Shown here piece by piece: positions 2,541 to 31,296 of a DNA stretch of 64,000 nucleotides. Position 1 is the first letter of the stretch; every line of letters starts with the position of its first letter. This stretch comes from Myxococcales bacterium. Lineage in GTDB: Bacteria > Myxococcota > Myxococcia > Myxococcales > UBA5297. The DNA lies in assembly GCA_050288705.1 (NCBI GenBank), contig JBNKEI010000111.1, forward strand, positions 5,872 through 69,871, written 5' to 3'. Position numbers and translations under genes: made by a program. Under the pieces are notes generated by a model, which saw only the letters and a program-made list of their open reading frames with translations, did no database searches and was not told where the DNA came from.

Positions 2541-2552
2541 CCAGTCCTTCTT

Positions 2553-2678: not shown

Positions 2679-2697
2679 AATTAATAGGTAACCAAAT

Positions 2698-7584: not shown

Positions 7585-8023
7585 GCGCTGTCGTCAGTTA
7601 CGTCTTAACGCTACGTACGCCGAAAAACGGCTTTGGTTCATACTGCGCAAGCAACAACTTGGGGGCTTCAAGTTTCGGAGGCAACACCCACTTGGTCCGT
7701 ATATCCTCGATTTTTTCTGCCCGCAAAAGAGACTCGCCATCGAAGTAGATGGGGATTCGCATTTTTTGTTAGACGGTCCTCGCAAAGATGCTTTGCGAAC
7801 AACATATCTTAGGCAGGCTGGAATTCAGGTGATCCGATTTACTAACGCAGATGTTTTGCGGCATCCTGAACTTATCAAGCAAGTTCTATGGAAAATACTT
7901 ATGGACCCTCACCCTAACCCTCTCCCAGAGGGAGAGGGTAATTCAAAGGTATCCACTGTCCAGAATACAAAAGGGGAGACATTCCAAGATATTCCCTCTC
8001 CCTTTGGGAGAGGGTTAGGGTGA
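7568..8023 (+). CDS. DUF559 (Vsr-like endonuclease fold) domain protein
   Basis: AEKRLWFILR...FKFRRQHPLGPYILDFFCPQKRLAIEVDGDSH...IRFTNADVL is the DUF559 signature. The C-terminal tail (PHPNPLPEGEG...PSPFGRGLG) is translated from repeat copies. Confidence 0.85.
   Translation: MTVTIERCRQLRLNATYAEKRLWFILRKQQLGGFKFRRQHPLGPYILDFFCPQKRLAIEVDGDSHFLLDGPRKDALRTTYLRQAGIQVIRFTNADVLRHPELIKQVLWKILMDPHPNPLPEGEGNSKVSTVQNTKGETFQDIPSPFGRGLG
7906..7938. repeat. GC-rich palindromic interspersed repeat (inverse orientation)
   Basis: ccctcaccctaa ccctctccc-aga-gggagaggg. Confidence 0.85.
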
Positions 8024-8026
8024 GGG
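7994..8026. repeat. GC-rich palindromic interspersed repeat
   Basis: ccctctccc-ttt-gggagaggg ttagggtgaggg. It contains the DUF559 stop and the GTG used by the next ORF. Confidence 0.85.
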
Positions 8027-8889
8027 CGCTACGCTACCAGGTAAAATGGACCATCGATTCTGGTGACGGTGTAAAAAACACCCTACATATTTCCCAACCC
8101 TCGCCAACATTAATTACAGGTAACGAATGGTATCAAATCTTTCGAAAACGCGCCTTGGCTTCAATGGGGAAAACTTGGTTTCCCGTGTACCGAATGGCCG
8201 ATGGTGAATTTTCATTTTGTGTAGGCTGGCGTCCGTCTTATGGCTATTCAATTCGCTCAATAGCTAGGAGAATAGCCTGGAAGTTTGGTTTATATAATGC
8301 AGCAGAACATGCTACTTGCTGGAATGAGAAATATACAACGAGCGAACGTGCGGCGCTCATGCCTAAATACATAGCCGACTTGAGAAGAATTTCCCAACAG
8401 GGATGCCTGGCTATGTTTTTAGGAAAATGCGAAAATACCAATTTTGACCAATACAAAAATGAGTTATGTTCTTGGCTAGATAATAATCAAGTCGAATTGA
8501 CCACCAACAATTACTTGCCATTCTTTTTTGTTCTGCATTTTTTAACTTCTCAGGGATGGCAAGAAATTTATTCTGGTCGGCGAATTTTAGTAGTTACCTC
8601 AATAGAAAAACAACGTCAGCAAGCAATTCGTCTTAGATTGGAAGGGTGGGGGGCTAAATCAGTTCAATTTTTAACCATTTCTCCCCATAGAGCTTTGTTC
8701 GAAATAATCAATGTTGCTGATATAGGCGAGGTAGATATTGCCCTAGTTGGGGCAGGCATTGGCTCGGCAAATATTTTGTGTCAACTTGAACCCTTGCAAA
8801 CCCTTTGTCTGGATGTAGGAGCGTACATTAATGCCTTGGAAAATCCGAAATTTCTACCACACGGTACGTTTGTGGTTCCGGAGGCATAA
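8020..8889 (+). CDS. Hypothetical protein, possibly GT-D/DUF1792-like glycosyltransferase (start uncertain)
   Basis: YRMADGEFSF resembles the R.GDGE motif of DUF1792/GT-D enzymes as I remember it. The only in-frame start upstream of that motif is the GTG inside the repeat. The alternative ATG at 8164 would cut into the putative domain. Confidence 0.4.
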   Translation: MRALRYQVKWTIDSGDGVKNTLHISQPSPTLITGNEWYQIFRKRALASMGKTWFPVYRMADGEFSFCVGWRPSYGYSIRSIARRIAWKFGLYNAAEHATCWNEKYTTSERAALMPKYIADLRRISQQGCLAMFLGKCENTNFDQYKNELCSWLDNNQVELTTNNYLPFFFVLHFLTSQGWQEIYSGRRILVVTSIEKQRQQAIRLRLEGWGAKSVQFLTISPHRALFEIINVADIGEVDIALVGAGIGSANILCQLEPLQTLCLDVGAYINALENPKFLPHGTFVVPEA

Positions 8890-8903
8890 GAAAACTAGCC
8901 CAG

Positions 8904-10082
8904 GTGCAGGTCATGAAGACTTTCTCGGTTGTTCACAACATACCAAGCCCCTACCGCCTTCATCTGTTTCGAATGCTAAATGTGGAGCTGAAGGAGAGGG
9001 GGCTGAATCTGCATGTACATTTTATGGCTTCTGGTTACCAAGAAAGGCCTCATTGGTGTTCCACTTCTTCCATCTGCTGCTCCCCAGATTCTGTGGCAAA
9101 ATATGGTTTTTCACATTCATTCTGGCACGATCGAGGATGGGAATTTGGTCCCCACCACTTGCACTATAATCCCGAACTTATCGCTCATTTAATAAGCAAT
9201 CCGGTAGATTATTTGCTAGTAGGTGGGCCTTGGGCAACCATAACCGCAATGGCAATTTCCTTAAAGCCCAGAGCAAGACGCTCCATTGCCTGGCTAGAAG
9301 CCAACACCAAAACTCCTGGACGCATAAATGGAATAGCAGGGGCGTTCAAAAGAAAAACACTTTCTAAATATGACTATATTGCAGTGCCTGGGCAAGAAGG
9401 CATTGCTCATGCGCAGCTAATTTTTGGCACAGGAAAACCTCCTCCTTTGGTTTTATTGCCCAACTTAGTTGACGAGAAAGAATTTCGGAAGAACAACTAT
9501 AGGCAAGAGTCACGGACGCAAATTTGTAAAAAGTATGATCTTCCAGAAAATCGAAAAATAGCTTTATGGAACGCCAGATTAATTGCCTCAAAAGGCATTT
9601 GCGAATTTCTTAGCAAAATTTCAGTAGGTATGCTGGCTGGCTGGAATATTATAATTTTGGGCGATGGTCCAGAAAAAAACAAGATACTTAAAACCATTCA
9701 TAAAAATCGGCTGCAAGATCATGTTTTTGTTTTTGGATATGTTAGCTACGACAAAATGCCCGAAATTTATAATGCTGCTGATTTTTTGATATTGGCATCT
9801 TTGCGCGATCCTAATCCGCTTTCGGTGATTGAAGCCATGCATTGCGGACTTCCGCTATTGGTATCTAACCGAATTGGAAATTTTTCCGAGGCGTTGGAGG
9901 AAGGAGAAAACGGGTGGTGTTTCGATCCTTTTGACCAGCGGTCAGTCGTGGTCGCTGTAAAAAAGGCGTTCAGTGCTTCTCGCCAAGAACTGGGAAAAAT
10001 GGGCGAGAAATCTCGGAAAATTGCCTCCCGCCACTGGTCCAGTAACGAAGCCATTAACCGTTTTCTCGATAGTGTTTTATAG
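8904..10082 (+). CDS. Glycosyltransferase family 4/1 (GT-B)
   Basis: C-terminal SLRDPNPLSVIEAMHCGLPLLVSNRIGNFSEALEEGENG (E-x7-E). The likely start is the ATG at 8913. Confidence 0.8.
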   Translation: MQVMKTFSVVHNIPSPYRLHLFRMLNVELKERGLNLHVHFMASGYQERPHWCSTSSICCSPDSVAKYGFSHSFWHDRGWEFGPHHLHYNPELIAHLISNPVDYLLVGGPWATITAMAISLKPRARRSIAWLEANTKTPGRINGIAGAFKRKTLSKYDYIAVPGQEGIAHAQLIFGTGKPPPLVLLPNLVDEKEFRKNNYRQESRTQICKKYDLPENRKIALWNARLIASKGICEFLSKISVGMLAGWNIIILGDGPEKNKILKTIHKNRLQDHVFVFGYVSYDKMPEIYNAADFLILASLRDPNPLSVIEAMHCGLPLLVSNRIGNFSEALEEGENGWCFDPFDQRSVVVAVKKAFSASRQELGKMGEKSRKIASRHWSSNEAINRFLDSVL

Positions 10083-10204
10083 AGGATAGTGTGCTCTCGA
10101 CCCGGACCTCATAGCTTTCGCGATAATTCACCGTAATGTAAGCATATGCTTTAGCCAGGTGGGACTACGTGGATAAAAGTGCTGAGTAGTTACGAAATAT
10201 TAAT

Positions 10205-10891
10205 TCAACTCGCCAACATATACCCCTTGCCACGCTTAGTAAGAAGAATCTTGGGATCTACACCGTTATCACCTAGCATTCTACGCAAGCGGGAAACAAA
10301 TATGTCTACTGTTCGAGTTATGGTTTCTTGAGAATAGCCCCATACTTCCACCAAAAGCTCTTTGCGAGAAACCCAGTTTCCTTTTTTTTTCCATAAATGC
10401 AGAAGAAGAGCCAACTCTAATTCGGTAAGTAGGTGAGTGGCTTCGAACAAACAAAGAGTGGATTGCTCGGGGGAAAGAACTGCCTTGCCAATTTGAATCT
10501 GGGTAGGCATGCTCTGGTGATACCAAGAGCTTCGTCGAAGTATTCCGCGTATACGCAGTACTAATTCCTGAAGATGAAAGGGCTTAGTTACATAATCATC
10601 AGCGCCTATACTTAGCCCACTAATGCGATCTTCGTCGCTAGCGCGGGCAGTCAAAATCAGAACCGGAAGACGGTTATCAACTCGCTTAATGTCTTGGAGA
10701 AGCTCTAGTCCATCACCGTCGGGAAGCATGCGATCAAGAATAACTAAACAAAAAGAGATTTTGTTCATTACCTCTCGGGCTTGATGCGCAGTTTCTGTCC
10801 AAAAGACTTCGTAGCCTTCCAGCTCAAAATTCAATTTAAGGCCGTGAGCTAAAGTAGTTTCGTCTTCCACTAGTAGAATTCGCTTGGTCAT
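10205..10891 (-). CDS. OmpR/PhoB-family response regulator
   Basis: Receiver domain (ILLVEDE...ILDRMLPDGDG...TARA...DDYVTKPF) plus a winged-helix C-domain (VDIFVSRLRRML...GKGY). Confidence 0.9.
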   Translation of the reverse strand: MTKRILLVEDETTLAHGLKLNFELEGYEVFWTETAHQAREVMNKISFCLVILDRMLPDGDGLELLQDIKRVDNRLPVLILTARASDEDRISGLSIGADDYVTKPFHLQELVLRIRGILRRSSWYHQSMPTQIQIGKAVLSPEQSTLCLFEATHLLTELELALLLHLWKKKGNWVSRKELLVEVWGYSQETITRTVDIFVSRLRRMLGDNGVDPKILLTKRGKGYMLAS

Positions 10892-11009
10892 AGTAAGGGT
10901 GGTCTATTCTTATTCTACTGGCAGGGCAAGTCTGAACATTTGCTAATAGAGTGTAGTTTTCGCTAGTTGCTAACCAGCCTTTGCAGTAGAAATCGTTTAT
11001 GGTTGGGGT

Positions 11010-11813
11010 ATGAAGATGGAAGATACTAGCAAACTGAGTCTTTCCGAGTTGAAACGTTGTTTTGAAAATTTTGACAATAATGAGGATTCTTGGCCGGTTG
11101 GTTGGATCAGCTCCCTGCGAGCTGATTCGCGCAAAGGTGCGCGTGCTCTGGTTGAGCGATGGGAAGAACGGCAAAAAAGAGAGCAGGCGGAGAATGAAAG
11201 GTTGCAAAATCTTTTGCGCTGGGAGCACCAGCTTTGGAAGCGAGGAGTAGGCCATATTGCTGGAGTAGACGAGGCCGGAGTGGGGCCTTTGGCAGGGCCA
11301 GTGGTGGCCGCCGCATGTATTCTTCCTCATGACTTCTGTCCTCGTGGGATCGATGACTCCAAAAAACTCGACTCCGAAAAACGAGAGTCTTTAGAGAAAG
11401 AAATTAAGCAGAACGCGATTGCTTGGTTCGTAGCAATGGCCACCGTAGGCGAAATTGACTCGCTAAATATTTACCAAGCTTCTTTGCTGGCTATGAAGCG
11501 TGCGGTAGATGGTCTGATGGTAATGCCAGACTATATTTTAACCGATGCGCGCACTATTCCCGACATCACAATATCCCAACAAGGAATTATTCGCGGTGAT
11601 GCCCTTTCTCTAACCATCGCCGCAGCCAGTATTTTGGCAAAAACTGCTCGCGACAGAATGCTTGGCGAATTGGCCAAGAAGTATCCGGGATACGGGTTTG
11701 AAAAGCACAAAGGGTATCCTACGCCAGAACACTGTGCCGCTCTGCAGCGGCTAGGCGCGTGTCCCGAACATCGCACTAGTTTTGCTCCGGTTAGCAAAGT
11801 GTTGGCGCCTTAA
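11010..11813 (+). CDS. rnhB: Ribonuclease HII with ~80-aa N-terminal extension
   Basis: GVDEAGVGPLAGPVVAAA, DDSKKL, and a C-terminal KGYP..EH motif. Confidence 0.9.
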   Translation: MKMEDTSKLSLSELKRCFENFDNNEDSWPVGWISSLRADSRKGARALVERWEERQKREQAENERLQNLLRWEHQLWKRGVGHIAGVDEAGVGPLAGPVVAAACILPHDFCPRGIDDSKKLDSEKRESLEKEIKQNAIAWFVAMATVGEIDSLNIYQASLLAMKRAVDGLMVMPDYILTDARTIPDITISQQGIIRGDALSLTIAAASILAKTARDRMLGELAKKYPGYGFEKHKGYPTPEHCAALQRLGACPEHRTSFAPVSKVLAP

Positions 11814-11897
11814 GCGAAACCAAGTGGAGCTGCCCTTGAAGCGTTCGCCTGTTTATGGAGAGAATAGATTCTAGATCGATTCTCACTCTAACAGGGG

Positions 11898-12260
11898 ATG
11901 AGAGCCATGTTAGTGTCCAGCGCAGAAAAGCGGCGTTATTCTCGGTTGCCAGTCAGTATCAAAATTGAAGGACATTGGTGGGATATCGAGAAAGAAGAAC
12001 ACGTTCTTTCTGCCTGGATGACTGCAGTTTCCGAAGGCGGAGCCTTACTGCGTTGCTCCGAACCTATTGGAGCTAATTCGGTTATAAAATTCGTCCTGCG
12101 CCTGAAAACCATGAAGAAAGTGGAAATAAAGGCAGTGGTTCGCTGGTGGAGGCGTAACGGAGAAGTTCGTGATTTGGGGGTGGAGTTTGCTGAACCAATC
12201 AAGCGCATTGGCGCATATGTGGAAAGGCAGTTGGCAATAATGGAAGAGAGAAATCGGTAA
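11898..12260 (+). CDS. PilZ domain protein
   Basis: RRYSR (RxxxR) followed by TAVSEGGALL (D/NxSxxG-like). Size is 120 aa. Confidence 0.7.
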   Translation: MRAMLVSSAEKRRYSRLPVSIKIEGHWWDIEKEEHVLSAWMTAVSEGGALLRCSEPIGANSVIKFVLRLKTMKKVEIKAVVRWWRRNGEVRDLGVEFAEPIKRIGAYVERQLAIMEERNR

Positions 12261-12306
12261 AGCAGCCATTGGTCTCACCCATAGTAGTTCTGTTAGCGTA
12301 AATACT

Positions 12307-13758
12307 ATGAATGTAGCGATTGCCTACCCAGCGCTTCTCGGTAAGGGAAGCCCCATGCTTACCCAGAACCGTCAATTCCAGTGGTATCACCAACCTTCGT
12401 ATATTTATCCGGTGGTGCCAGCCTACGGAGCCACCTTACTTAAAAAAAACCAATTCGGGGTCTGTTGGTATGATGGTATTGCTAGTGGTCAGCAGCCCGA
12501 AGCTTTTTTCACTTACTTAAAGCAACATCAGCCCGACTTAATTGTCATGGAGACTAAGACGCCGGTAATCAGACTCCACTGGCAGATAGTACGTCGCATC
12601 AAAGAATTGCTGCCCGAATCTCGGGTGGCGCTAATGGGAGACCACGTAACCGCCTTACCTCAAGAAACCTTTGCTGCCTGTCCGGTTGATTTCGTAATTA
12701 CTGGGGGTGACTTCGACTTTGAGATGCTCGCTCTTGCCCGGCATCTACGTGACGGCAAAGCGTTGAGCGCCAATATATTTGCTCGCCAAGGAGAGACCAT
12801 TGTTGCGGGTTCTGCCGTTGAGGACCGCGACCTTAATACGCTGCCACTAATCGATCGGCGTTTGACCATGGCCCACCAATACGGAGAAAAGTGGAAAAAG
12901 CGTCTACCGTTTTTTTACACCATGGTAGGCAGAGACTGTCATTGGGGGAAATGTAGCTTTTGTGCATGGACTACGCTTTATCCCCAATATCGTACCCGTA
13001 CGGCCGAAAGCCTACTAGAAGAGATAGCTTACCTAGTGCGCGACCATGGGGCGCGTGAGATTTTTGATGACACTGGTTCGTTCCCCACCGGAGAGTGGTT
13101 GGTAACATTTTGCGAAGAAATGATTCGCCGCGGCCTCCATCGCAAAGTCTTATTTTCGTGCAACAAACGGTTCGATCGCACCGACCGAAAAATCTACTCG
13201 CTAATGAAGCGGGCGGGATTCCGTAAGCTCAAAATGGGGCTGGAATCAGCTAACCAGCATACCCTTGACCGTCTTCACAAGGGCATTTGCGTGGACGATA
13301 TTCGCGCAGGTTGCCAGGAAGCCAGTAAAGCAGGACTCGATGTTCATTTGACAGTCATGGTTGGTTTTCCCTGGGAAACGCGACTTGATGTCCAGGCGAC
13401 CATAAAACTAGCCCAATCATTAATGGCCAAAGGTCATGCAGAGATGTTGCAGGCTACCGTAGCTGTGCCTTACCCGGGAACTCCCCTTCATGATTACGCG
13501 GTGAAAGAAGGAGTAATGCGATTTGATCCCCAAGAATATGAGCGCTATGACATGACCGAACCCGCCTTTGAGGTACAAGGCATGAGTCCCGAAGAGGTCG
13601 TACGCTCCTGTGCGCGGCTATATCGTAGCTTTTTTCACCCGCGGTTTATGCTAAGGCAGGCCCTGCGTGTTCGTTCGCTGGAAGACCTGTCGTATGCCGC
13701 CCGTGGAGTGAAGGCAATAACCGGTCACATTCGCGATTTTCTGGCTATGCGTCAGTGA
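12307..13758 (+). CDS. B12-binding-domain radical SAM protein
   Basis: N-terminal cobalamin-binding-like region, Cys motif GRDCHWGKCSFCAW, and a downstream radical-SAM core (GLESANQ...). Confidence 0.7.
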   Translation: MNVAIAYPALLGKGSPMLTQNRQFQWYHQPSYIYPVVPAYGATLLKKNQFGVCWYDGIASGQQPEAFFTYLKQHQPDLIVMETKTPVIRLHWQIVRRIKELLPESRVALMGDHVTALPQETFAACPVDFVITGGDFDFEMLALARHLRDGKALSANIFARQGETIVAGSAVEDRDLNTLPLIDRRLTMAHQYGEKWKKRLPFFYTMVGRDCHWGKCSFCAWTTLYPQYRTRTAESLLEEIAYLVRDHGAREIFDDTGSFPTGEWLVTFCEEMIRRGLHRKVLFSCNKRFDRTDRKIYSLMKRAGFRKLKMGLESANQHTLDRLHKGICVDDIRAGCQEASKAGLDVHLTVMVGFPWETRLDVQATIKLAQSLMAKGHAEMLQATVAVPYPGTPLHDYAVKEGVMRFDPQEYERYDMTEPAFEVQGMSPEEVVRSCARLYRSFFHPRFMLRQALRVRSLEDLSYAARGVKAITGHIRDFLAMRQ

Positions 13759-14555
13759 GACCGGCTCCGCCAGCGACTCCAGTTTCGTAATATCCGAACG
13801 GCAAAAAGGGGATTCCCGACGACATAGCGCCGAAACATACGTCGCGGTTCAAGGGCCAAACGAAAAAGCCACTCTAGGCCGTGGTCAGTCATCCAGCGCG
13901 GCCCGCGACGAACGTCACCTGCTAGATAATCGGCGGTTGCGCCAAGACACCACACCAGCGGGGCGGCCAGACGTGAACGATAGCAGTTGACCCATAGTTC
14001 TTGAGTAGGTGTTCCCATCCCTACAATCAACAGGTGAGGCTTGGCGTCAGCTATTTTCCATAGTACCGATTCGTTTTCCGGGCCTTGTTGGTCAAAGTAG
14101 CCGTGATGAGTACCGACAATTTGCAAGTATGGATGCTGCATTTGTAGCGCAGCGGTAGCATCTGCTGCCACGCCTGGTTTTCCTCCAATCCAGAAAACGC
14201 GCCACCTCCGTCTAGAAGCTAGGTCAGCAAGATCCCCAATAAAATCAGCGCCGGTCATTCGTTGGGGTGCTTTCGCGCCAAACACGCGCGCAGCAAGCCG
14301 AACGCCCCAACCGTCGCAATACACTAAGTCAGCTCGATTGAGCGCATTAGCCAGCTCTGCTGATTTCTGTGCGGTATTTGCTACATGTACATTGAGGTAC
14401 ATGATGGTGCCCTGAGCATTAGCGTCGATAAGGGCAGCTGCTCGTGCTAGCAGGCTGTGGACGTCCACCACGTCCAGCTTTACACCCAGGATATTGATCT
14501 GAGAGTCGCTAGAGAACACAGCAAACTTATACTGCGCCGGCACGATCATGGGCAA
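13752..14555 (-). CDS. WecB/TagA/CpsF-family glycosyltransferase (GT26)
   Basis: LVYCDGWGV...GADF...GMGTPTQELW motifs. Its 3' end overlaps the convergent radical SAM gene by 7 nt. Confidence 0.85.
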   Translation of the reverse strand: MPMIVPAQYKFAVFSSDSQINILGVKLDVVDVHSLLARAAALIDANAQGTIMYLNVHVANTAQKSAELANALNRADLVYCDGWGVRLAARVFGAKAPQRMTGADFIGDLADLASRRRWRVFWIGGKPGVAADATAALQMQHPYLQIVGTHHGYFDQQGPENESVLWKIADAKPHLLIVGMGTPTQELWVNCYRSRLAAPLVWCLGATADYLAGDVRRGPRWMTDHGLEWLFRLALEPRRMFRRYVVGNPLFAVRILRNWSRWRSRSH

Positions 14556-14653
14556 TCATTTATCTCGTATTCGCGGCCGAATAGGTCGGCCATGAGCTCG
14601 AGCGCATTCAAGCAATGTGTACACCAGACAAGTATTTTTTACGCCGCTATTTT

Positions 14654-15643
14654 CTAAAACGAAGGTTTTTCCCGTTCTCGCCCCAGTAAAACCAAATAAA
14701 TCGTCAAAAGAACGCCCGTGGCCAATGCAAAAGAAATTTTGAACCATGAAGAAAGATGGGGCTGGTGAATTTGCGAAATAGTGCCCTCAATAATCCCGGC
14801 AATTACAAAAATGGGAATGGTTCCCAAACAAAGGCGTATTGCAATGCGCGATTCTTTTCGCAGGGCAGCAATGCGCGAGTAACTGCCCGGCATAATCAAC
14901 GCGCGGCCCAGAATTAGTCCTGCAGCTCCCGCCAAACAAATAGAACTTATTTCCAAAACCCCATGAGGAAGAATCCATGCCCAAAACCAAAGAGCATGTC
15001 CTTTGGAATGATAAACCGCGGCCAGCGCTCCTAATAAAATTCCATTGGTGGTTAGCAAAATGCCGGTGCCTATTCCCAAAGTTAGCCCCAATGCGAAGGC
15101 CAAAAATGCTACTTGAATATTGTGAGTGAACAAAAAGCTGGAAAAACTTGACTGCGATTGCGCATCTGCTAATGGCTTCTCGGCTTCATTGGTTACCCGC
15201 TCAGCAGGATCGAGGTTAAGATGCTCCTCAGGTACCAGAAAAAGCATTGCTTGCGGATCGGTTTTGGTGGCAGCAAAGCCCAAAACTGCTCCTAAGAAAA
15301 AAAGAGCATAAGCCAGCACCAAAGCTTTCCACTCGTTGCGTACTAATTGGGGAAAACCCCGGGCAAAAAACCTAGTGACCTCACGCAGTCGAGGTTTTTC
15401 TCCTGGATAAGTTTGTGCATAAGCTCGTGCTACCAAATCATTGAGCGAATCCATTAAATCGGCTGAGGCAGCACGACTGCGTGCCCATAGCAAGTCAGAA
15501 GAAGCAGCTCGGTATAATCGACCAAATTCCTGTGCCTGGTGCAAACTTAGGGAGCGCAGCCCTTGGCGTTCGATATGGTCAAGCAGCTCGGCCAAGCGAA
15601 GCCATCGCGGACGGCCTCTTTCTAGGAACTCGTTCAGATCCAC
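14654..15643 (-). CDS. SpoIIM-like (DUF95) integral membrane protein
   Basis: Cytoplasmic N-domain, then FTHNIQVAFLAFALG and multiple TM helices ending with PHGVLEISSICLAGAAG, as in stage II sporulation protein M-like proteins. Confidence 0.7.
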   Translation of the reverse strand: MDLNEFLERGRPRWLRLAELLDHIERQGLRSLSLHQAQEFGRLYRAASSDLLWARSRAASADLMDSLNDLVARAYAQTYPGEKPRLREVTRFFARGFPQLVRNEWKALVLAYALFFLGAVLGFAATKTDPQAMLFLVPEEHLNLDPAERVTNEAEKPLADAQSQSSFSSFLFTHNIQVAFLAFALGLTLGIGTGILLTTNGILLGALAAVYHSKGHALWFWAWILPHGVLEISSICLAGAAGLILGRALIMPGSYSRIAALRKESRIAIRLCLGTIPIFVIAGIIEGTISQIHQPHLSSWFKISFALATGVLLTIYLVLLGREREKPSF

Positions 15644-15712
15644 AGGGTCAATTTAGCAGGTTTGATACGAGCAAGGTTCATATTCGTGACCTTGAACTGT
15701 GACCGGAGACTG
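15591..15712. repeat. Direct duplication, copy C (true 5' end and upstream region of the SpoIIM-like gene)
   Basis: Aligns at a fixed offset of 620 bp with 16211..16333 (..catcgcggacgg[c/t]ctctttctaggaac...atttagcaggtttgatacg[a/g]gcaaggttcatattcgtgacctt). About nine-tenths identical over the first ~100 bp. Confidence 0.85.
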
Positions 15713-15729
15713 CATGTCAAGCACAAATC

Positions 15730-15791
15730 CTAACAGTTTTTTGAGTAGACTGCGCTATTCTAACAATTTTTAAAGAAGTCTAACGATTTTT
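15730..15791 (+). promoter_or_regulatory. Three phased direct repeats CTAAC[A/G][G/A]TTTTT upstream of the 15806 ORF
   Basis: ctaacagttttt (15730), ctaacaattttt (15760), ctaacgattttt (15780). Spacing is 30 and 20 bp. A GGAGG RBS (15792-15796) follows, 9 nt before the GTG start. Confidence 0.45.
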
Positions 15792-15805
15792 GGAGGCTTG
15801 GCCAG

Positions 15806-16186
15806 GTGTTAACCGTACCCGATTTTCAGGAAGACAACGAGGGAGCTGTTACGGTTAAAAGCGATACAGCATATCTCTATCGGTTTTATGATGGGACAAC
15901 GATGGCTGAATCGCTCTATGGCTGGGTACGAGAAACAGTTCGTGAAGAATTGCGGCGTGAGCTGGAGTTCGTGGTTGGGTTTAGAACTATCCGTCGGGAA
16001 ATCGAATCTATTGTTGATATGCCTGATCGATTGGTCAATCTTTTTATTAAGCTTTGCCTTCAGAACAGAGGTCGACTCTCAGCCGCAAAACGAAAAAGTC
16101 ACTTCTCAAGTCTATCAGACCAGGAATTGGAGGCTATGGAGCGGGTTGTTCAGGCTCATCAAGGACCGCTACTGGCGAATCCATGA
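15806..16186 (+). CDS. Hypothetical protein (126 aa) carried on the insert between duplication copies C and D
   Basis: GTG start with a good GGAGG RBS. No family recognised with confidence. The C-terminal ...NRGRLSAAKRKSHFSSLSDQELEAME looks like the tail of a larger regulatory or Fic-type protein, but I cannot support that. Confidence 0.4.
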   Translation: MLTVPDFQEDNEGAVTVKSDTAYLYRFYDGTTMAESLYGWVRETVREELRRELEFVVGFRTIRREIESIVDMPDRLVNLFIKLCLQNRGRLSAAKRKSHFSSLSDQELEAMERVVQAHQGPLLANP

Positions 16187-16210
16187 CTTTGTTCAGTATG
16201 GTTAAATGGC

Positions 16211-16333
16211 TCCAGGCGAAGTCATCGCGGACGGTCTCTTTCTAGGAACCTGGTTAGATCCACCGGATCAATTTAGCAGGTTTGATACGGGCAAGGTTCA
16301 TATTCGTGACCTTTTAACTGGACCAGAGGCTTG
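16211..16333. repeat. Direct duplication, copy D (decayed copy of the SpoIIM-like 5' end)
   Basis: See 15591..15712. It lies directly 3' of the sheath-like gene stop (16342). Confidence 0.85.
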
Positions 16334-16341
16334 GTCCAGGT

Positions 16342-18132
16342 TCAAGTGCCTGCTAATAAGCTGACTTTGGTCCGGAAAGTTATTTCCGGAATATCAATCA
16401 CCGGCTCCCCGTGGGGCTTGACGATGATTTCCAGGTACTCAGAATTAGGAACAGTTCGAACTATTGTTTCCGGTGTTTTCGGAAACGCTTGTTGGAATAT
16501 ATCGGCAATGGCAATACTAAAAACTCCTTGAATGATTTGATGTTCAGTGCCGGTGGGAATAGCGTCAGCTACAATCTCAATTGTTTTAGCCATTTGCGCA
16601 ATTGCTAGTTGATTAGCAAGCGACTGGGTTGCTTCGGGTGTACCCATTGCATGAGAAGTGCCTCGATACATCATACGAGCTTGCGTTATTATTGCACGGT
16701 CGCGATTAGGAATAGCGCCTAACAGAATAAATCCCGCACGTGCTGCCATGTTTTGCGATTCCAGCGAAACTAACTCTTCGGTGGGAATGGCAACCTGGCC
16801 TCCCTGGTCAGTAATTAGGTGAATTTTTAGGTCGTTGAGAACTCCAAACTGCTGACCAGAGAATTGGAAAGGGTGCCCTTCAGAAAAACTACGCGCTACC
16901 AATGCGGCCAAAACATAAACTCCGTTTGCAAAAACGGTGCGCTGATCAGGCTCGGAAAAAGGCATATTGCGAATACGCGCAGTAGAAGAATTATAAGGAA
17001 GTCGTGCTACCACTTTATTGAGCACACAGCCAACCCACCGCATGGCTTCGCTAGTGCATGTATTTCGAGTGAGAACAGCGCGAGGTTCGGAAGAATTAGT
17101 GAATTGGCTATTGCTTTTGCCCAATCCCAACAAATGATCAAAACCAAGAAGGCTGGCTTTGCCACCTACCAGCAAGGGGGTCATAAGTCGCTGGCTTGCC
17201 ATGGCCCAGTGCTGTAATCGCTGCAACTGTGCAGAATCAGCAACGACAAAAGTATCGACTAAGATAAGGTCAAACAGATTTTCCGGAAAATCAGCAATCT
17301 GGTCGAGATGCGAAGCAATTTCATCCAATGACGAAGACAGAACGCTCACTTGCACGGTATTACCAGAAACATTTTGCAAAAGAAGGCGTATTCCACGCCA
17401 AACTGATTCTAGTCGGTGTATTTCAGGGTGTGCGAGAATAGATAATAATATCGATTGAAATGCTTGTTCTACCAGCTCTAAAGCATTCTTATTACTGGAT
17501 GTTTTTCGTGAAGAACTAGTCGATTCATTCATTTGCTCCGAATCGCCGGGTAGGCAAGCTAGGCGCAGAATTGAGTCCAAAGGATCGGTGGAATGCGAAG
17601 AGGAAGAGCTATTATTTAGTTCTCCCCGAGTGCTCAAGGGAGTACTAGGAACCGAGAAATCCCACAGATGCTCTTCAATTTTTCTAACCCATGACTGGTT
17701 AGAAAGAATTCGTGAAAGCTGGGCAATAATTTCCTCCTTTTCCCATTTTTGTAATTCCCCTTGTTGAAGGATTTTTCGTGCCTCCACAAGGTTTCGGAGA
17801 ATCGGAACTTGCGTCAACCAAGAAGAAGGCAGCAAATCTTTCCATTCAGTCCAGCGAAGATCAATGCGCACAGCACAATTGGAAGGAAAAAACGGGTCCT
17901 CAATATCAATAGCCACAGTGGGAGCAATCGCCTTCATCAGCTCGTCAAAAGAATTAATGTTTACTGAAAAAGGCCCAAATTCTTCCGGCTCGGCAGCACA
18001 ATAATCGGGACGAGGATGAAATTCGCCAACCGCCAGAATTCGAAATATTGGCGTATTGCTGTTCTCATTCATTGAATCTCCAAAATTGTTCGAGTGGCAA
18101 AGCTCCTTCTTTTCGGTCATGATTGCTTCCAT
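16342..18132 (-). CDS. Fused TssB(VipA)-TssC(VipB)-like contractile sheath protein, orphan
   Basis: N-part: FRILAVGEF, VNINSFDELMKAIAPTV, RIDLRWTEWKDLLPSSWLTQVPILRNLVEARKIL (TssB/DUF770 pattern). A Ser-rich linker follows. C-part: AHPEIHRLESVWRGIRLLLQN, VVARLPY, AIPTEELVSLESQNMAARAGFILLG (TssC/DUF877 pattern). The start may be an internal Met (MTEKK or MNENS). Confidence 0.7.
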   Translation of the reverse strand: MEAIMTEKKELCHSNNFGDSMNENSNTPIFRILAVGEFHPRPDYCAAEPEEFGPFSVNINSFDELMKAIAPTVAIDIEDPFFPSNCAVRIDLRWTEWKDLLPSSWLTQVPILRNLVEARKILQQGELQKWEKEEIIAQLSRILSNQSWVRKIEEHLWDFSVPSTPLSTRGELNNSSSSSHSTDPLDSILRLACLPGDSEQMNESTSSSRKTSSNKNALELVEQAFQSILLSILAHPEIHRLESVWRGIRLLLQNVSGNTVQVSVLSSSLDEIASHLDQIADFPENLFDLILVDTFVVADSAQLQRLQHWAMASQRLMTPLLVGGKASLLGFDHLLGLGKSNSQFTNSSEPRAVLTRNTCTSEAMRWVGCVLNKVVARLPYNSSTARIRNMPFSEPDQRTVFANGVYVLAALVARSFSEGHPFQFSGQQFGVLNDLKIHLITDQGGQVAIPTEELVSLESQNMAARAGFILLGAIPNRDRAIITQARMMYRGTSHAMGTPEATQSLANQLAIAQMAKTIEIVADAIPTGTEHQIIQGVFSIAIADIFQQAFPKTPETIVRTVPNSEYLEIIVKPHGEPVIDIPEITFRTKVSLLAGT

Positions 18133-18221
18133 GGGTGTACGTTTTCAACCTTTTATTGACCACTACTTGATCAAAATGACACAATTAGGCCCATTTTTCT
18201 GCCAGAGGAGCCAGTTTTACT

Positions 18222-19334
18222 ATGATTCGTGTAGCGATAGTGGGAGCAACCGGAATAGTTGGGCAGCAGGCCCTAGTAGCATTAGAAAACCACCCTTGGT
18301 TTCTAGTCACTAAGCTGGCGGCCTCCCAGCGATCCGCAGGAAAGACTTACGTTGAGGCCTTGAAAGACCACTCCGGGAGCATGAAGTGGTGGTGTTCAGA
18401 GCCGATTCCCGCTTCGGTAGCTCAGTTGCAGGTAGAAGAAGCTTCTCAGTTAGATGTTAGCGAAGTTGATTTGGTTTTTTCCGCGGTTGACACCGCGGTT
18501 GCCAAAGAATTGGAGCCTCAGTACGCCCAAAGTAAGCCAGTAATTAGTACTGCCTCGGCTTTTCGTTACCAAGAAGACACCCCCATTTTGGTTGGTGGGG
18601 TGAACATGGATCACGCCAGCTTGCTGGCGGTTCAACAAAAAAACCGGGGTTGGAAAGGCTTTATCGCTCCTAAACCCAACTGCACAATTTCCGGACTGGT
18701 GGTTTCTCTCAAGCCCATTCTCGATAGTTTTGGAATTCGGCGAGTAGTGATGACTTCGCTGCAAGCCATGTCTGGTGCAGGAAGAACCCCCGGGTTGTCA
18801 GCCATGGACATGATGGAAAATGTGGTTCCCTACATTCCGGGAGAAGAATCCAAGGCCGAAAGCGAGCCACAGAAGATTCTGGGAATTCTGCAAGAAGCCA
18901 ACGCAAACGCAACCATCGCTCCTGCCTCATTTACCACTTCCGCTACTTGTACCCGGGTTCCGGTATTAGACGGTCATCTGGTTAGCGCAGTGGTAGAAAC
19001 TGAGCAGGCGGCAAGTCCAGAAGAAATTAAGAAGGCGATGACCGAATTTGGGAAGGATTTTATCAATTTAGGATTGCCTAGCTCGCCAAAAAATTTGATC
19101 GAAGTACTAGATGATCCTTTTCGTCCGCAACCTCGACTAGATCGAGAGCGTGGCGGAGGAATGACCACTACGGTAGGTCGTTTGCGGCTAGAATCGGTGC
19201 TTGGTAACGGAATTAAGTACGTCTGCTTGGCGCATAATACCAAGCTGGGAGCCGCTAAAGGAGCTATTCAGACCGCGGAATATCTGGTGAAACATTATTT
19301 GAATTGGGATGTGCCAAAGACAAGGTGTCTATGA
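18222..19334 (+). CDS. asd: Aspartate-semialdehyde dehydrogenase
   Basis: VAIVGATGIVGQ, active-site region KPNCTISG, and a later LDGH motif. Size is 370 aa. Confidence 0.9.
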   Translation: MIRVAIVGATGIVGQQALVALENHPWFLVTKLAASQRSAGKTYVEALKDHSGSMKWWCSEPIPASVAQLQVEEASQLDVSEVDLVFSAVDTAVAKELEPQYAQSKPVISTASAFRYQEDTPILVGGVNMDHASLLAVQQKNRGWKGFIAPKPNCTISGLVVSLKPILDSFGIRRVVMTSLQAMSGAGRTPGLSAMDMMENVVPYIPGEESKAESEPQKILGILQEANANATIAPASFTTSATCTRVPVLDGHLVSAVVETEQAASPEEIKKAMTEFGKDFINLGLPSSPKNLIEVLDDPFRPQPRLDRERGGGMTTTVGRLRLESVLGNGIKYVCLAHNTKLGAAKGAIQTAEYLVKHYLNWDVPKTRCL

Positions 19335-21659: not shown

Positions 21660-22283
21660 TTAGCTGCTGCTGCTGCTGTCGGAGTAGCTATGCCTCGATA
21701 CGCTGGTGGCTTGTTCGCTAGAAGTTCGCAGAGTTTTGCCATGCTCTGTTCTGATGGAGTTTTCTGAAGGGGAGCGATTGTAGTACTCGCCAAGTCCTAT
21801 TGCCCTCCACTCTTCCATTCCCAGAGGAGTCGATGGGTCTGTTCTGCTTCCTTCATACCCCGCATCGGTTCCCCTCATAATGTTTTTCGCATGAACCAAT
21901 TCGTGGCCTAAACTTATGAAGGAATCTTCCGAGTTTCCTGGCACTCGACTTGCTTTTCCACTGCTATCAATGCTCATTCCCTGGTCTGGCGACCAATGCG
22001 TCGAAGCGCTGCTGCCCTTCTTGCTTTTTGTAAAAGGCCAAAAACTGCTAGAAGAACCACCCGATTCGGGCCGTGTATACACTGCTCCATGTGGGCCGGC
22101 GTCTCGTATAGTTACGGTTTTTTTTCCTCCTGACGAATAGTGGCTAATATCATCTAGAAGCTTTCTCCCAGACGATCCCTGTTTTATCTGCTGTAGTGCA
22201 CTTGCTGTTTTTTTTCCATAGTTACGGTCTCTACTAGATTCCTCAATACGAATTCCAGGATTGGTGGTTCTAGAAATAGGCAT
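21660..22283 (-). CDS. NleD / peptidase M91-like zinc metalloprotease (effector-type)
   Basis: GHELVHAKNIMRGT (HExxH), EEWRAIGLGEY, and ENSIRTEHGKTLRTS match my recollection of the NleD/M91 core. Ser-rich tail. Start chosen at MPISRTT (22283) rather than the ORF-track 22364. Confidence 0.6.
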   Translation of the reverse strand: MPISRTTNPGIRIEESSRDRNYGKKTASALQQIKQGSSGRKLLDDISHYSSGGKKTVTIRDAGPHGAVYTRPESGGSSSSFWPFTKSKKGSSASTHWSPDQGMSIDSSGKASRVPGNSEDSFISLGHELVHAKNIMRGTDAGYEGSRTDPSTPLGMEEWRAIGLGEYYNRSPSENSIRTEHGKTLRTSSEQATSVSRHSYSDSSSSS

Positions 22284-22528
22284 GTAGATATCCCTTTTTA
22301 TAGATTTCAAAAATTTATTCCAAAAAAGCATAGCGTACGTCATACCGCAATGGAAACATGACATCCTGGAGCCTCGGCTAGCTAAAGAGTGGTGGCGCTT
22401 ACCAAAACTGACGTGGGCTGTTTGAAGTAATCTGTGACGCTTCGCTGTTAATCTGTGCTAGCTTGTGGTATGCACCCATCGCTTGCGATTCAAAACCATA
22501 CCAGGCAAATACTAGAGTGAAACAGCAC

Positions 22529-26002: not shown

Positions 26003-27112
26003 CTATAGTGGGAACAAGATCTCAATAATAGTTCCCTGATCTGGTTTGCTATTTAGTTCCACTTTTCCATTGTAAAGCGATACTACTTTGCTAACGGTAG
26101 AAAGTCCTAGTCCAGTACCGGGAATCATGCGCGTTTTCTCGTTCTTAATACGTACAAAATCTTGAAAAAGACGTTTGGTTTCTTCTTGATTCATGCCAAT
26201 GCCGGTGTCTTCTATTTGAATGGAAATGTGTGATTTGGTAGGTATTATGCGTACTATAACTTTTCCTCCTGGACGATTATATTTAACTGCATTAGTCAGT
26301 AGGTTGGAAAAAATGAGTTCAATTTCCACTCGATCAGCATTCATGAAAACCGAATCGGCATGAATTTCTAAACTAACTTGTTCGCGATTGGCTTGAGAGC
26401 GCACTAACTCCAACGAATTTTTTGCAATTTCAAAAAGATCTAGAGAAACTAGTTCCCGTTTGCGTTGTCCAGATTCCACTCGCGTCAAATCGAGAAGGTC
26501 GTTAATTAGCTGGCGCATAGCCAAAAGTCGGGTGATGCTACGGTCAATCATAAGGTCATAAGATTGTAAATCGACTCCCAGAGATCGTGCTTGCATGGCC
26601 AGCAAGTAGCCTTCCACCGCGGCCAAAGGGGCTTTTAATTCGTGAGCGAGAACCGAGACAAATTGAAAGCGTATACGTTTTTTTTCTTCCGCGTGACGCT
26701 TGGCTTGTTGCTGAAGGGCAACATGCCTGCTGGCTTTGTGAACGGTTGCGCGCAATTCATCAGGGGTAAACGGCTTGGCAAGAAAATCGAACGCCCCTTG
26801 TTTGGTGGCTAGCACTGCGGTTTCTAGCGTGGCGTAGGCGGTTATCATAACCGTCAGGGCTTCCGGCGAGGAGGAAGAGAGCCGCTCCAAAACTTCTAGA
26901 CCTGATAAGCCAGGCAGCTTGTAATCCAAAAGAACAATGTCCGGTGAAAAGGAAGATATTTTTTGAAGGGCAACTTCTCCTGACTCCGCTTGATCAACCA
27001 CAAATTGAAGTTGACCTTCTTGCATTGGTAAAACCAACCGTTCCAGCAATCTGGTGACGCTTAGCCGCATACCTAGCTCGTCGTCTACCACCAGCACGCG
27101 TAAGGATTCCAT
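26003..27112 (-). CDS. Hybrid receiver-histidine kinase (REC-HisKA-HATPase_c)
   Basis: REC domain (VLVVDDE...LLDYKLPG...AKPF), H-box VSVLAHELKAPLAAVEG, N-box NLLTNAVKY, G-boxes EDTGIGM / GTGLGL. Confidence 0.85.
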   Translation of the reverse strand: MESLRVLVVDDELGMRLSVTRLLERLVLPMQEGQLQFVVDQAESGEVALQKISSFSPDIVLLDYKLPGLSGLEVLERLSSSSPEALTVMITAYATLETAVLATKQGAFDFLAKPFTPDELRATVHKASRHVALQQQAKRHAEEKKRIRFQFVSVLAHELKAPLAAVEGYLLAMQARSLGVDLQSYDLMIDRSITRLLAMRQLINDLLDLTRVESGQRKRELVSLDLFEIAKNSLELVRSQANREQVSLEIHADSVFMNADRVEIELIFSNLLTNAVKYNRPGGKVIVRIIPTKSHISIQIEDTGIGMNQEETKRLFQDFVRIKNEKTRMIPGTGLGLSTVSKVVSLYNGKVELNSKPDQGTIIEILFPL

Positions 27113-27147: not shown

Positions 27148-27558
27148 CTAAGAATTAAGTAGCCTTCCAATTTCTTTGCGAATCTGTTCGGAGCGCAATG
27201 GTTTCGCCAAGATTGCATCGGCCTTAATCCAGGCGCGTCCAGGGCTGGCTTCAAAATCAATTCCAGTCTCGTTAGTAACGGAAGTAACCAAGATAACCGG
27301 AGTTTTTGGATTCTTCTTTTTTACTCGATGGCATAAAACAAAGCCCGCGTCCATGTACTCCATCATCAAATCGGCAACTACGAGATCGGGCGTATTTTGG
27401 GCAAGTGCCTCATCAGCCTCGCGCAAACTCGATGCGCACAAAACCTGAAATCCGCAAGCTTTCAAATGCATTTGGGTTTGCAGCAAGAAATCGGGATCGT
27501 CATCGACAACCAGAATAGTTTTTGAAGTAACAGCCGCTTTTTCTGGGGAAGTGCTCAT
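27148..27558 (-). CDS. Single-domain response regulator (receiver only)
   Basis: ILVVDDDPD...VVADLMME...AKP. 136 aa, with no output domain. Confidence 0.85.
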   Translation of the reverse strand: MSTSPEKAAVTSKTILVVDDDPDFLLQTQMHLKACGFQVLCASSLREADEALAQNTPDLVVADLMMEYMDAGFVLCHRVKKKNPKTPVILVTSVTNETGIDFEASPGRAWIKADAILAKPLRSEQIRKEIGRLLNS

Positions 27559-31285: not shown

Positions 31286-31296
31286 GGGAGCCTCTC

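Follow-up and report, generated by a model that had tools for sequence, protein, structure and literature searches.

In the T6SS sheath, TssB and TssC normally form a heterodimer, and to our knowledge the literature describes this sheath as an obligate TssB/TssC heterodimer. The canonical sheath is made of two polypeptides encoded by adjacent genes, and these genes sit with the T6SS core genes. The only function that we know of for motifs of the LDSIL type is ClpV docking. A ClpV-docking motif of this kind (LLDEIM/ILDSII type) is found at the N-terminus of TssC (PMC4239648).

The locus described here lies in a 64-kb stretch of DNA, referred to below as the window (i.e., the whole stretch that was analyzed). 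Unlike the canonical sheath, its sheath protein is a single polypeptide, in which a disordered Ser-rich linker connects a TssB-like with a TssC-like part, and its gene has no visible T6SS neighbours in the window or in a further 8.6 kb. A literature search found no paper on natural TssBC fusions. As described below, single-chain TssBC is neither unique to the window nor an artefact, and it forms a conserved family.

Domain architecture and predicted fold

The ORF listing gives a single ORF of 596 aa at 16342..18132 on the minus strand, in which a disordered, Ser-rich linker separates an N-terminal TssB/VipA domain from a C-terminal TssC/VipB domain (Table 1). Both domains exceeded the Pfam gathering scores (T6SS_VipA PF05591, residues 30-155, 50.4 bits against a cut-off of 24; VipB PF05943, 91.6 bits against a cut-off of 27). 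With canonical profiles built in this analysis, residues 24-155 matched positions 27-157 of 166 in the TssB profile, and residues 205-509 matched positions 56-389 of 492 in the TssC profile. The protein did not reach the cut-offs of the NCBIfam equivalogs for TssB (TIGR03358, 47.8 bits against 97.25) and TssC (TIGR03355, 79 bits against 271.5). It has no Pfam match to the TssC C-terminal domain PF18945, which canonical TssCs carry, and its last 87 aa are confidently predicted by AlphaFold2 to fold into two helices and three strands.

The AlphaFold2 model of the whole protein had a mean pLDDT of 89.5 and a pTM of 0.88. Sequence matches in the PDB were exclusively TssC or TssB chains. Sheath chains of T6SS TssC took the first nine places among the Foldseek matches in the PDB (E 1.8e-18 to 1.1e-12), with alignments of 409-431 columns covering nearly the whole TssC chain. 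Target-normalised TM-scores were 0.63-0.73 for TssC chains and 0.55 for TssB. The initial annotation had read the ORF as a TssB part, a Ser-rich linker and a TssC part in one chain, and both the profile scores and the structural comparison with VipA/VipB-type sheath protomers confirm that reading. It had also placed the TssC part at roughly 100 aa below the usual length. The part is indeed shorter, but this figure overstates the difference, which comes to ~60-75 aa, as the TssC N-terminal helix motif apparently persists inside the linker. Low-complexity sequence replaces canonical TssC profile positions ~25-55, 17 aa are deleted internally, and the C-terminal domain is diverged and more compact; together these changes make up the shortfall.

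Table 1. Features of the single-chain sheath gene (window positions; residues in Met1 numbering).
Feature	Position	Strand	Remarks
CDS of single-chain TssB-TssC sheath protein	16342..18072	-	Probable start Met21; 576 aa, stop included
In-frame upstream extension (Met1/Met5, 'MTEKKELCHSNNFGDS')	18073..18132	-	Probably untranslated; ORF listing begins at 18132
TssB/VipA-like domain	17668..18063	-	Residues 24-155; PF05591 at 30-155; pLDDT >90
Ser-rich disordered linker	17521..17667	-	Residues 156-204 (model disorder ~155-208); pLDDT 47-65
LDSILRL helix	17560..17580	-	Residues 185-191; apparent homologue of TssC N-terminal ClpV-docking motif (LLDEIM / ILDSII)
TssC/VipB-like sheath core and diverged C-terminal domain	16345..17520	-	Residues 205-596; PF05943, TssC profile, Foldseek

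A ClpV-docking motif within the linker

The linker takes the place of the TssB C-terminal tail and of TssC profile positions ~25-55, and its columns are unconserved across the fusion family except in the region of the LDSILRL motif. This motif is the sole helix predicted within the linker by AlphaFold2 and corresponds to an island of conservation, L-D-x-L-L-x-x-V-D, in which residues are 60-87% conserved across the family. In family members L003 and L010, the TssC profile consensus 'gglLdeil' aligns to the linker motif. The motif is identical in a relative of the window copy at ~90% identity (L090), while the linker around it differs. Judged by sequence, the linker thus appears to retain a ClpV-docking helix motif, LDSIL, homologous to the one at the TssC N-terminus.

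Start codon

The ORF exists as first annotated, but its length of 596 aa is probably not that of the protein. The 576-aa version starting at Met21 is the sequence recorded in public assemblies, and exact-sequence look-ups with the Met1-start and Met5-start versions gave no match. In L090, the fusion starts at the position equivalent to Met21, the Met1 codon is ATA, and a 1-nt indel throws Met5 out of frame. Both the recorded sequence and the state of Met1 and Met5 in this relative indicate that Met21 is the probable start, giving a protein of 576 aa. A GGAG lies 5 nt upstream of the Met21 ATG. Promoter and terminator scans around the fusion gave no excess over shuffled expectation.

Translation of the upstream extension is therefore unlikely. 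Its Met5 'MTEKK' aligns with the start of the fusion family ('MTDKK'), and the extension may be what is left of the N-terminal arm seen in the family. The arm motif (GIASFGVSFG) is degenerate in the window copy, and this degenerate arm is probably not translated. The arm is also missing from several other family members, and its loss was for this reason rejected as proof of a non-sheath role.

Genomic neighbourhood

As the initial annotation had noted, the neighbours of the fusion are asd, coaE and a SpoIIM-family gene, with the fusion lying between asd and the SpoIIM-family gene. Pfam searches of all window ORFs of at least 150 aa, and of small ORFs in the gaps, found no other T6SS gene. Our own T6SS profiles (TagH, TssA, E, F, G, H, J, K, L, M, Hcp, VgrG and TagF), run against all 277 window ORFs of at least 50 aa, found no T6SS core gene, the best E-value being 0.05. 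A second assembly of the same organism supplied 8.6 kb past the window's 5' end, and this too held no T6SS gene. The isolation of the fusion from other T6SS genes, first noticed in the window, therefore extends across the 64 kb and the 8.6 kb beyond. The two T6SS-free flanks measure ~24.9 kb and ~46 kb (together ~71 kb, or a ~73-kb span with the gene), a longer T6SS-free span than at any other fusion-family locus examined. The asd/fusion pairing is kept in the ~90% relative. Assembly GCA_050287685.1 of this organism carries identical genes on JBNKCJ010000022.1 and JBNKCJ010000007.1. GC and GC3 of the fusion are typical of the window, and recent horizontal transfer of the gene was rejected on these grounds.

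The ~71 kb of flanking DNA without a T6SS gene and the stable placement by asd in two lineages at ~90% identity are both consistent with a true orphan, i.e., a sheath gene whose T6SS partners were lost or never present and whose product was kept as a self-assembling, possibly contractile, cytoplasmic polymer with a cytoskeletal, storage or other role. The contexts of related fusions, described in the next section, argue against this explanation.

The region next to the fusion shows decay and rearrangement, with a fic gene truncated to 126 aa and 120-nt direct repeats, and a 284-aa gene in the region near the fusion is an indel relative to L002. The window also encodes YacG, PilZ, a Roadblock/LC7 protein with a PatA_N domain and an MJ0042-type zinc ribbon; a Ser/Thr kinase gene adjoins the gene of a TPR protein, and Rfam found one tRNA only. 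These proteins suggest a diderm, 'delta-like' source. The Asd protein is 80% identical to Asd on contigs with YabP/YqfD sporulation genes and 72-76% identical to proteins of 'Bacillota bacterium' MAGs. Searches of protein clusters with eight housekeeping proteins returned no named relatives. The source lineage is poorly sampled, and most of its proteins are singletons at 90% clustering.

A family of single-chain sheath proteins

A profile search found 207 cluster representatives of the fusion family at E<=1e-30, mostly of ~600 aa (540-700 aa in 119 of the 150 best matches). The group in which the family is best sampled is Myxococcota. More than 100 are distinct full-length fusions with a common colinear architecture and the linker motif. 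The window protein has the family layout (TssB domain, linker with the L-D-x-L-L motif, TssC core and compact C-terminal domain), colinear over its full length, and aligns with P0002 from locus L001 at E 2.1e-81 and 93% coverage. A reference-genome scan using patterns from the window protein alone gave no match; sequence patterns were derived from a 10-sequence alignment, a 40-sequence alignment being too diverse for this purpose. The word-indexed homology search returned only 4-6 relatives even with a profile.

One alternative is that the fusion is an artefact, in which a frameshift from sequencing or assembly merged adjacent tssB and tssC genes. However, the NCBI contig and Logan SRR36185847, which are independent assemblies, encode an identical 576-aa product, and a frameshift would not account for more than 100 distinct fusions with the same architecture and linker motif. 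Nothing was found in favour of an artefact, and these data effectively refute it; the chance that it is one is negligible.

The genomic contexts of the relatives point to a T6SS function. In eight loci (L001, L003, L004, L005, L007, L010, L015 and L020), a TssM-L-K-J-ClpV block and TagH lie on one side of the fusion and, where the locus reaches, Hcp/TssE/TssF/TssG lie on the opposite side; no separate tssB or tssC was found within +-10 kb of the fusion in any of these. On the shorter contigs L006, L011, L014 and L085, TagH and/or ClpV adjoin the fusion. In Myxococcota, the fusion provides the one sheath gene of complete, canonical T6SS clusters (TssJ/K/L/M, ClpV, TagH, TssE/F/G and Hcp), and most relatives are encoded together with other T6SS core genes. 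Three further Myxococcota loci hold the fusion apart from the main cluster: beside an SLT transglycosylase, a PAAR-RHS-ADP-ribosyltransferase toxin and an ADP-ribosylglycohydrolase (L008), with Hcp as the sole T6SS neighbour (L013, on a 3.27-Mb contig), or among housekeeping genes only (L009).

In some loci, the fusion coexists with other sheath genes. It adjoins canonical tssC and tssB in L012, occurs as two fusions in tandem in L016, and follows a TssC-like gene in L021. These cases would fit an accessory or second sheath paralogue, in which the T6SS of the window's genome has its own tssB/tssC or another fusion, and the window copy co-assembles with it or substitutes for it under some conditions. 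However, the clusters of the clade nearest the window protein contain no sheath gene other than the fusion, and we consider an accessory role improbable.

In a distance tree, the window protein fell within the clade of in-cluster Myxococcota single-chain TssBC, on a deep, long branch; its identity to in-cluster relatives does not exceed 35%. Its nearest subclade consists of P0041, P0056 and P0073; a metagenome scan on this subclade found one high-GC Myxococcota-type locus with the order ClpV-TagH-fusion.

The deep branch apart from the in-cluster Myxococcota sequences, the degenerate or absent inter-protomer N-terminal arm, and the purifying selection described below are further features in favour of an orphan polymer. 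Yet all relatives with informative context use the fusion architecture as a T6SS sheath, the window copy keeps a motif whose sole known function is ClpV docking, and displaced fusions elsewhere adjoin Hcp or PAAR-Rhs toxins and are thus T6SS-related. An orphan is unlikely on this evidence, though a more credible explanation than an accessory paralogue. This explanation takes up the initial suggestion of a sheath-derived polymer in a non-T6SS role; that suggestion, like that of a minimal new contractile system, finds no support in the comparative data, given the large conserved family, its use as the sole sheath in canonical Myxococcota clusters, the kept ClpV motif and the displaced fusions in other genomes.

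Conservation and selection

Thirty columns of the fusion family show conservation of at least 85%, and the window copy carries the consensus residue in 29 of them, the exception being a conservative I for L. Comparison with the ~90% relative gave a dN/dS of 0.19 over 409 codons, which suggests purifying selection with only moderate constraint. The 576-codon frame is intact in these two lineages, which are separated by a dS of 0.28. With the conserved residues, the dN/dS, the LDSIL motif and the asd placement kept in the ~90% relative, the window copy looks functional.

Another explanation is a functionless, still undisrupted relic of a degraded T6SS. The decaying neighbourhood (the truncated fic, the direct repeats and the indel relative to L002), the instability of the 5' end between relatives and the merely moderate constraint could all be seen in this way. 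On the other hand, an open frame maintained in two lineages at this dN/dS, the nearly complete set of family-conserved residues and the confidently predicted fold argue against loss of function, and we judge a relic to be about as improbable as an accessory paralogue.

Proposed role and implications

We favour, at somewhat better than even chance, a dispersed T6SS in which the fusion is a single-chain sheath protomer and its partner genes lie elsewhere in the genome. These partners are assumed rather than seen, and their location elsewhere is the most likely arrangement in our analysis; displacement of the window fusion from them is likewise more likely than a new role. In the canonical sheath, the C-terminus of TssB meets the N-terminus of TssC on the outer face, and it is at this point that the linker connects the TssB-like N-half with the TssC-like C-half. 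Protomers would assemble on a TssEFGK baseplate and polymerise into six-start helical rings around an Hcp tube, and their contraction would expel the tube. ClpV may then recycle the protomers by docking on the LDSIL helix of the linker. The sheath gene, which lies between asd and the SpoIIM-family gene, would stand apart from partners encoded elsewhere.

A large natural family of single-chain sheath proteins implies that the two-gene TssB/TssC arrangement is not essential. In this family, the putative ClpV-docking helix lies within an internal linker that is disordered, and some members lack the N-terminal arm. Because one gene suffices, these proteins are simpler sheaths for structural studies and for engineering. 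A question that follows is how a recognition helix that is internal, rather than N-terminal, becomes exposed only after contraction. If the window's genome were without T6SS partners, a component of a contractile machine would here have been kept alone, a rare situation; as an orphan polymer, it would provide the first example of a sheath protein exapted for use outside an injection machine.

Comparison with known sheaths

The window protein has the same Pfam domains, order and fold as VipA/VipB of Vibrio cholerae (3J9G, 5MXN) and TssB/TssC of Myxococcus xanthus (5URW/5URX) and Pseudomonas aeruginosa (5N8N), with 16-18% identity in structural alignments. The ClpV-docking motif of the canonical two-subunit sheath (LLDEIM/ILDSII) occupies the position equivalent to LDSILRL. 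Compared to the canonical proteins, the window protein has the 17-aa internal deletion, no detectable PF18945 and scores far below the NCBIfam equivalog cut-offs for TssB and TssC.

The sheaths of phage tails, R-pyocins and extracellular or cytoplasmic contractile injection systems (3J9Q, 9GTP, 8KEE) are also single polypeptides with the common sheath core fold, but their structural match to the window protein is much weaker (E 9e-6 to 1e-2, TM 0.24-0.32) and ranks below all T6SS sheaths. The window protein has no Pfam phage-sheath domain and no sequence-level match to phage or CIS sheaths; unlike them, it has T6SS-specific TssB/TssC domains and the apparent ClpV motif. Its closest matches in sequence and structure are T6SS sheath chains, not those of phages, pyocins or CIS.

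The in-cluster Myxococcota fusions (P0002 in L001, and those of L003, L004, L007, L010, L015 and L020) share the domain order of the window protein and align with it end to end, including the L-D-x-L-L motif of the linker and a similarly diverged C-terminal domain. Identity is only 30-35%, the N-terminal arm is degenerate in the window protein, and GC content is 64-73% in their genomes versus 45% here. Whereas the window fusion is flanked by asd, coaE and the SpoIIM-family gene, these relatives are flanked by TagH, ClpV, TssJ/K/L/M and TssE/F/G/Hcp.

Domain architecture and predicted fold of the fusion protein

The 596-codon ORF, whose residues are numbered here from its first Met, was described in the initial annotation as a single chain made up of a TssB part, a Ser-rich linker and a TssC part, an architecture that Pfam, AlphaFold2 and PDB matches all bore out. 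In Pfam, residues 30-155 matched T6SS_VipA (TssB) with 50.4 bits against a gathering score of 24, and the main VipB (TssC) domain was recognized with 91.6 bits against 27. Scores against the NCBIfam equivalogs were far under threshold (47.8 against a cut-off of 97.25 for TssB and 79 against 271.5 for TssC), and the protein is therefore a distant relative rather than an ordinary orthologue. Among solved structures, every significant sequence match was to a TssC or TssB chain. An AlphaFold2 model built from a family alignment of 120 sequences was confident (mean pLDDT 89.5, pTM 0.88), with disorder only at the N-terminal ~24 residues and in the Ser-rich stretch at ~155-208. T6SS TssC sheath chains took all nine top places among the PDB matches of this model (E 1.8e-18 to 1.1e-12, target-normalised TM 0.63-0.73), M. 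xanthus TssB was matched separately (TM 0.55), and phage, pyocin and CIS sheaths ranked far below T6SS sheaths. We regard it as almost certain that the protein is a T6SS-type sheath protomer in a single chain and belongs to the Myxococcota-type fusion family.

The TssC part is indeed shorter than is typical, as first described, but the supposed linker is not foreign sequence and holds a homologue of the TssC N-terminal helix. Compared with the canonical TssC profile (492 positions), low-complexity sequence stands in place of positions ~25-55, a 17-residue deletion follows the first beta-alpha unit, and the C-terminal domain is more compact (87 versus ~103 residues); this last domain has a confident predicted fold, though it is too diverged for Pfam PF18945.

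Distribution of single-chain sheath proteins

A search of 1.84 billion cluster representatives with the fusion profile returned 207 proteins at E<=1e-30. Among the best 150 matches, 119 were 540-700 aa long, nearly all of them matching across most of the profile. Besides the window's ORF, 25 ORFs in reference-genome loci hold both domains in a single frame; they occur in Myxococcota (Polyangiaceae, 'Myxococcales' and Myxococcaceae MAGs) and also in Poribacteria, Planctomycetota, Terriglobia, Rhodothermales and one Azospirillum isolate. The window protein clearly belongs to this family, is 30-35% identical to its best-sampled members, and is placed by the tree in the Myxococcota-type clade, where it shares a deep branch with three metagenomic sequences. 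An artefact joining two genes was excluded by the identical product in independent assemblies, leaving it a negligible probability. No description of natural TssB-TssC fusions was found in the literature searched; database domain annotations imply the architecture. At the level of the family the interest is moderate, in that sheaths come from one gene and the ClpV helix is internal to the chain.

Genomic context in relatives

Eight other loci (L001, L003, L004, L005, L007, L010, L015 and L020) carry the fusion in one conserved arrangement, in which TssM-TssL-TssK-TssJ-ClpV share one strand and are followed by an SLT transglycosylase (seen in L001), TagH, a small gene and the fusion, with Hcp, TssE, TssF and TssG after it where the locus extends that far. 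Portions of the TssM-to-fusion arrangement were present on the shorter contigs L006, L011, L014 and L085. None of the eight loci has a separate tssB or tssC within 10 kb. The sheath of these organisms is therefore the single-chain protein.

In three further loci the fusion is displaced. In L008, from a Myxococcales MAG (7843-18650), it is preceded by an SLT transglycosylase and followed by a PAAR-RHS toxin of 1376 aa whose tip is a Scabin-like ADP-ribosyltransferase, and next comes an ADP-ribosylglycohydrolase gene whose product is likely the immunity protein; membrane-complex and baseplate genes are absent within 10 kb of the fusion. The sole T6SS partner in L013 is Hcp, amid P450 and molybdopterin-oxidoreductase genes, and the L009 fusion sits among genes for an Lcl_C/EGF-domain protein, FGE-sulfatase, HupE/UreJ and PurE/PurK. 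These three fusions are apart from the window protein in the tree, and separation from the main cluster has therefore occurred more than once. Elsewhere the fusion accompanies a second sheath gene: canonical tssC and tssB on the opposite strand in L012 (446-4983), another fusion in tandem in L016 (Poribacteria; 1475-4984), and a preceding TssC-like gene in L021 (Planctomycetota; 8460-11773). These loci are precedent for reading the window copy as an accessory paralogue beside another sheath, which we consider improbable.

Isolation of the window copy

Pfam found no T6SS gene other than the fusion in window ORFs of at least 150 aa or in small gap ORFs. Home-built profiles for 15 T6SS proteins, with labelled seeds from a Paracoccus plasmid cluster and L001 and iterated over the ORFs of 85 loci, gave nothing better than E=0.05 except the fusion among 277 window ORFs of at least 50 aa, and no window ORF contained a PAAR motif. 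Both searches upheld the earlier statement that the window has no further T6SS genes. Assembly GCA_050287685.1 of the same organism reaches 8,591 bp past the window's 5' end and adds glycosyltransferases, an encapsulated-ferritin-like gene and a [NiFe] hydrogenase; no T6SS genes were found in this extension, which brings the two T6SS-free flanks to ~24.9 kb and ~46 kb. The same assembly breaks at window ~7880-8000, in the region of a DUF559 gene, where one contig's end is another's start, and the join there is therefore supported by a single assembly. The empty flank exceeds that of every other family locus examined, and this favors a true orphan with a new role over retained sheath function; on the whole we judge such a role unlikely.

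Gene content and local synteny

The window contains asd, coaE, a class-I (Trp/Tyr-type) tRNA synthetase, a MiaB-type radical-SAM enzyme, RNase R, RelA/SpoT, NadA, an arginine-biosynthesis operon with ArgR, a HydABC-type [FeFe] hydrogenase, two-component systems and a polysaccharide gene cluster. Taken with the Myxococcota-type sheath, the presence of YacG, PilZ, Roadblock/LC7 with PatA_N, an MJ0042-type zinc ribbon and a Ser/Thr kinase gene adjoining a TPR protein gene suggests a lineage that is diderm and 'delta-like'. Asd in the window shares 80-81% identity with Asd from contigs that also encode the sporulation proteins YabP/YqfD, and 72-76% with MAG proteins labelled 'Bacillota bacterium'. 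Either the gene came in by transfer or the organism is unusually placed, and if it were a member of the Bacillota the sheath would be more surprising. Eight housekeeping proteins were present in the collection; at 90% clustering six were singletons and the other two clustered only with a JGI metagenome fragment.

Three other genes were observed in passing. The Peptidase_M91 gene lies 3.5 kb from the sheath gene amid housekeeping genes and is also present in this organism's Logan assembly (SRR36185847); no evidence was found tying its product to a secretion system. The hydrogenase-kinase fusion lies directly downstream of the HydABC-type operon, adjoins a receiver-kinase hybrid and a stand-alone receiver, and looks like a hydrogen-sensing hydrogenase coupled straight to a two-component system. 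The arginine operon contains the gene for the 354-aa protein, placed between argG and argC.

Coordinates of features in the window
Feature	Position	Strand	Remark
TssB-linker-TssC fusion ORF	16342..18132	-	596 codons
asd	18222-19334	+	compared with L086 and L089
Fic-domain gene C-terminal remnant	15806-16186	+	126-aa ORF; intact homologue in L002
Direct repeats	15592-15711 and 16212-16331		120 nt, 85% identical; flank Fic remnant
Peptidase_M91 protein	21660-22364	-	NleD-like 'effector' zinc protease family; 62.9 bits
[FeFe]-hydrogenase large-subunit-like and Fe-S domains fused to HisKA/HATPase histidine kinase	27569-29563	-	
Features listed with the hydrogenase-kinase fusion	26003-27112, 27148-27558, 29564-33815	-	
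354-aa protein	44817-45881	+	weak P-loop matches only (DUF1611_C, MobB)

The divergent asd/fusion arrangement is kept in a ~90% relative, represented by contigs L002 and L090 of JGI sample 3300038402, and is not found in organisms whose Asd is 80% identical, so the placement of the fusion is lineage-specific rather than an assembly quirk. In the relative's contig L002 the Fic gene is intact (1320-3121 region; motif HPFSDGNGR), and an extra 284-aa gene lies at the same site. One of the 120-nt repeats overlaps the 5' end of the SpoIIM-family gene, and the whole has the look of a small insertion undergoing decay between the sheath gene and its SpoIIM-family neighbor. A neighborhood in such flux speaks against retained sheath function and for a functionless relic.

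Conservation, ClpV-docking motif and start codon

Several features of the window copy point to retained sheath function. It carries the consensus residue in 29 of 30 alignment columns with at least 85% conservation across the 45 nearest relatives, differs from the ~90% relative with dS 0.275, dN 0.053 and dN/dS 0.19 (409 aligned codons), and lies within the GC and GC3 range of other window genes (GC 45%, GC3 40%). This single-chain T6SS sheath homologue keeps its predicted fold, its conserved residues and the ClpV motif and is under purifying selection, and we consider it rather unlikely to be a functionless relic.

The ClpV-docking motif at the N-terminus of canonical TssC takes forms such as LLDEIM and, in P. 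aeruginosa HsiC2, ILDSII (PMC4239648). The window protein has P-L-D-S-I-L-R-L at residues 184-191, the sole helix predicted within the linker. Across the family L-D-x-L-L-x-x-V-D is 60-87% conserved and the rest of the linker is unconserved; the canonical TssC consensus 'gglLdeil' aligns directly with 'ALDSLL' (L003) and 'RLDALL' (L010). In the ~90% relative the motif is unchanged and the flanking linker residues differ. Because its only known role is recruiting the T6SS disassembly ATPase, the motif argues that the window fusion still works with a ClpV.

The 596-aa frame exists as first annotated, but the product recorded in public assemblies has 576 aa and starts at Met21 (MNENSN...), with GGAG 5 nt upstream of that codon. 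In the ~90% relative the Met1 position is ATA, and a 1-nt indel just before the Met21 position breaks the frame from Met5. Met5 begins 'MTEKK', similar to the usual family start 'MTDKK', so that the stretch of 16 codons from Met5 to Met21 may be what is left of the family's N-terminal arm, whose motif GIASFGVSFG is degenerate here ('LCHSNNFG') and probably untranslated. Judged by its position, the arm motif should be the counterpart of the protomer-linking N-terminal strand of TssB, and its degeneration favors a new role over retained sheath function. However, several other members also start near the first core strand without an arm, so its loss is not decisive. In the family alignment most members carry the arm; it is missing in ~8 (e.g., P0019, P0035, P0038, P0043, P0047 and P0049), with predicted starts 5-15 residues ahead of the first core strand, and in one more, P0021, with a start 17 residues ahead; either their starts are miscalled or they form a sheath subgroup lacking the N-terminal inter-protomer strand.

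Proposed function and comparison with known sheaths

The reading that we prefer, at somewhat better than even odds as a whole, is a single-chain T6SS sheath with its partners elsewhere in the genome. By analogy with the canonical system, protomers would assemble around an Hcp tube on a baseplate, the assembled sheath would contract, and ClpV would then unfold the protomers; the distant partner genes would follow the precedent of L008, L009 and L013. In the canonical VipA/VipB sheath the TssB C-terminus and the TssC N-terminus are both in the outer domain, so a flexible linker between them should be tolerated.

The fusion is homologous to the VipA/VipB sheath and, by analogy, would work like it. 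It differs from the canonical T6SS sheath in being one chain instead of two subunits and in scoring below the equivalog cut-offs, and the window copy is not encoded with core genes in the visible span.
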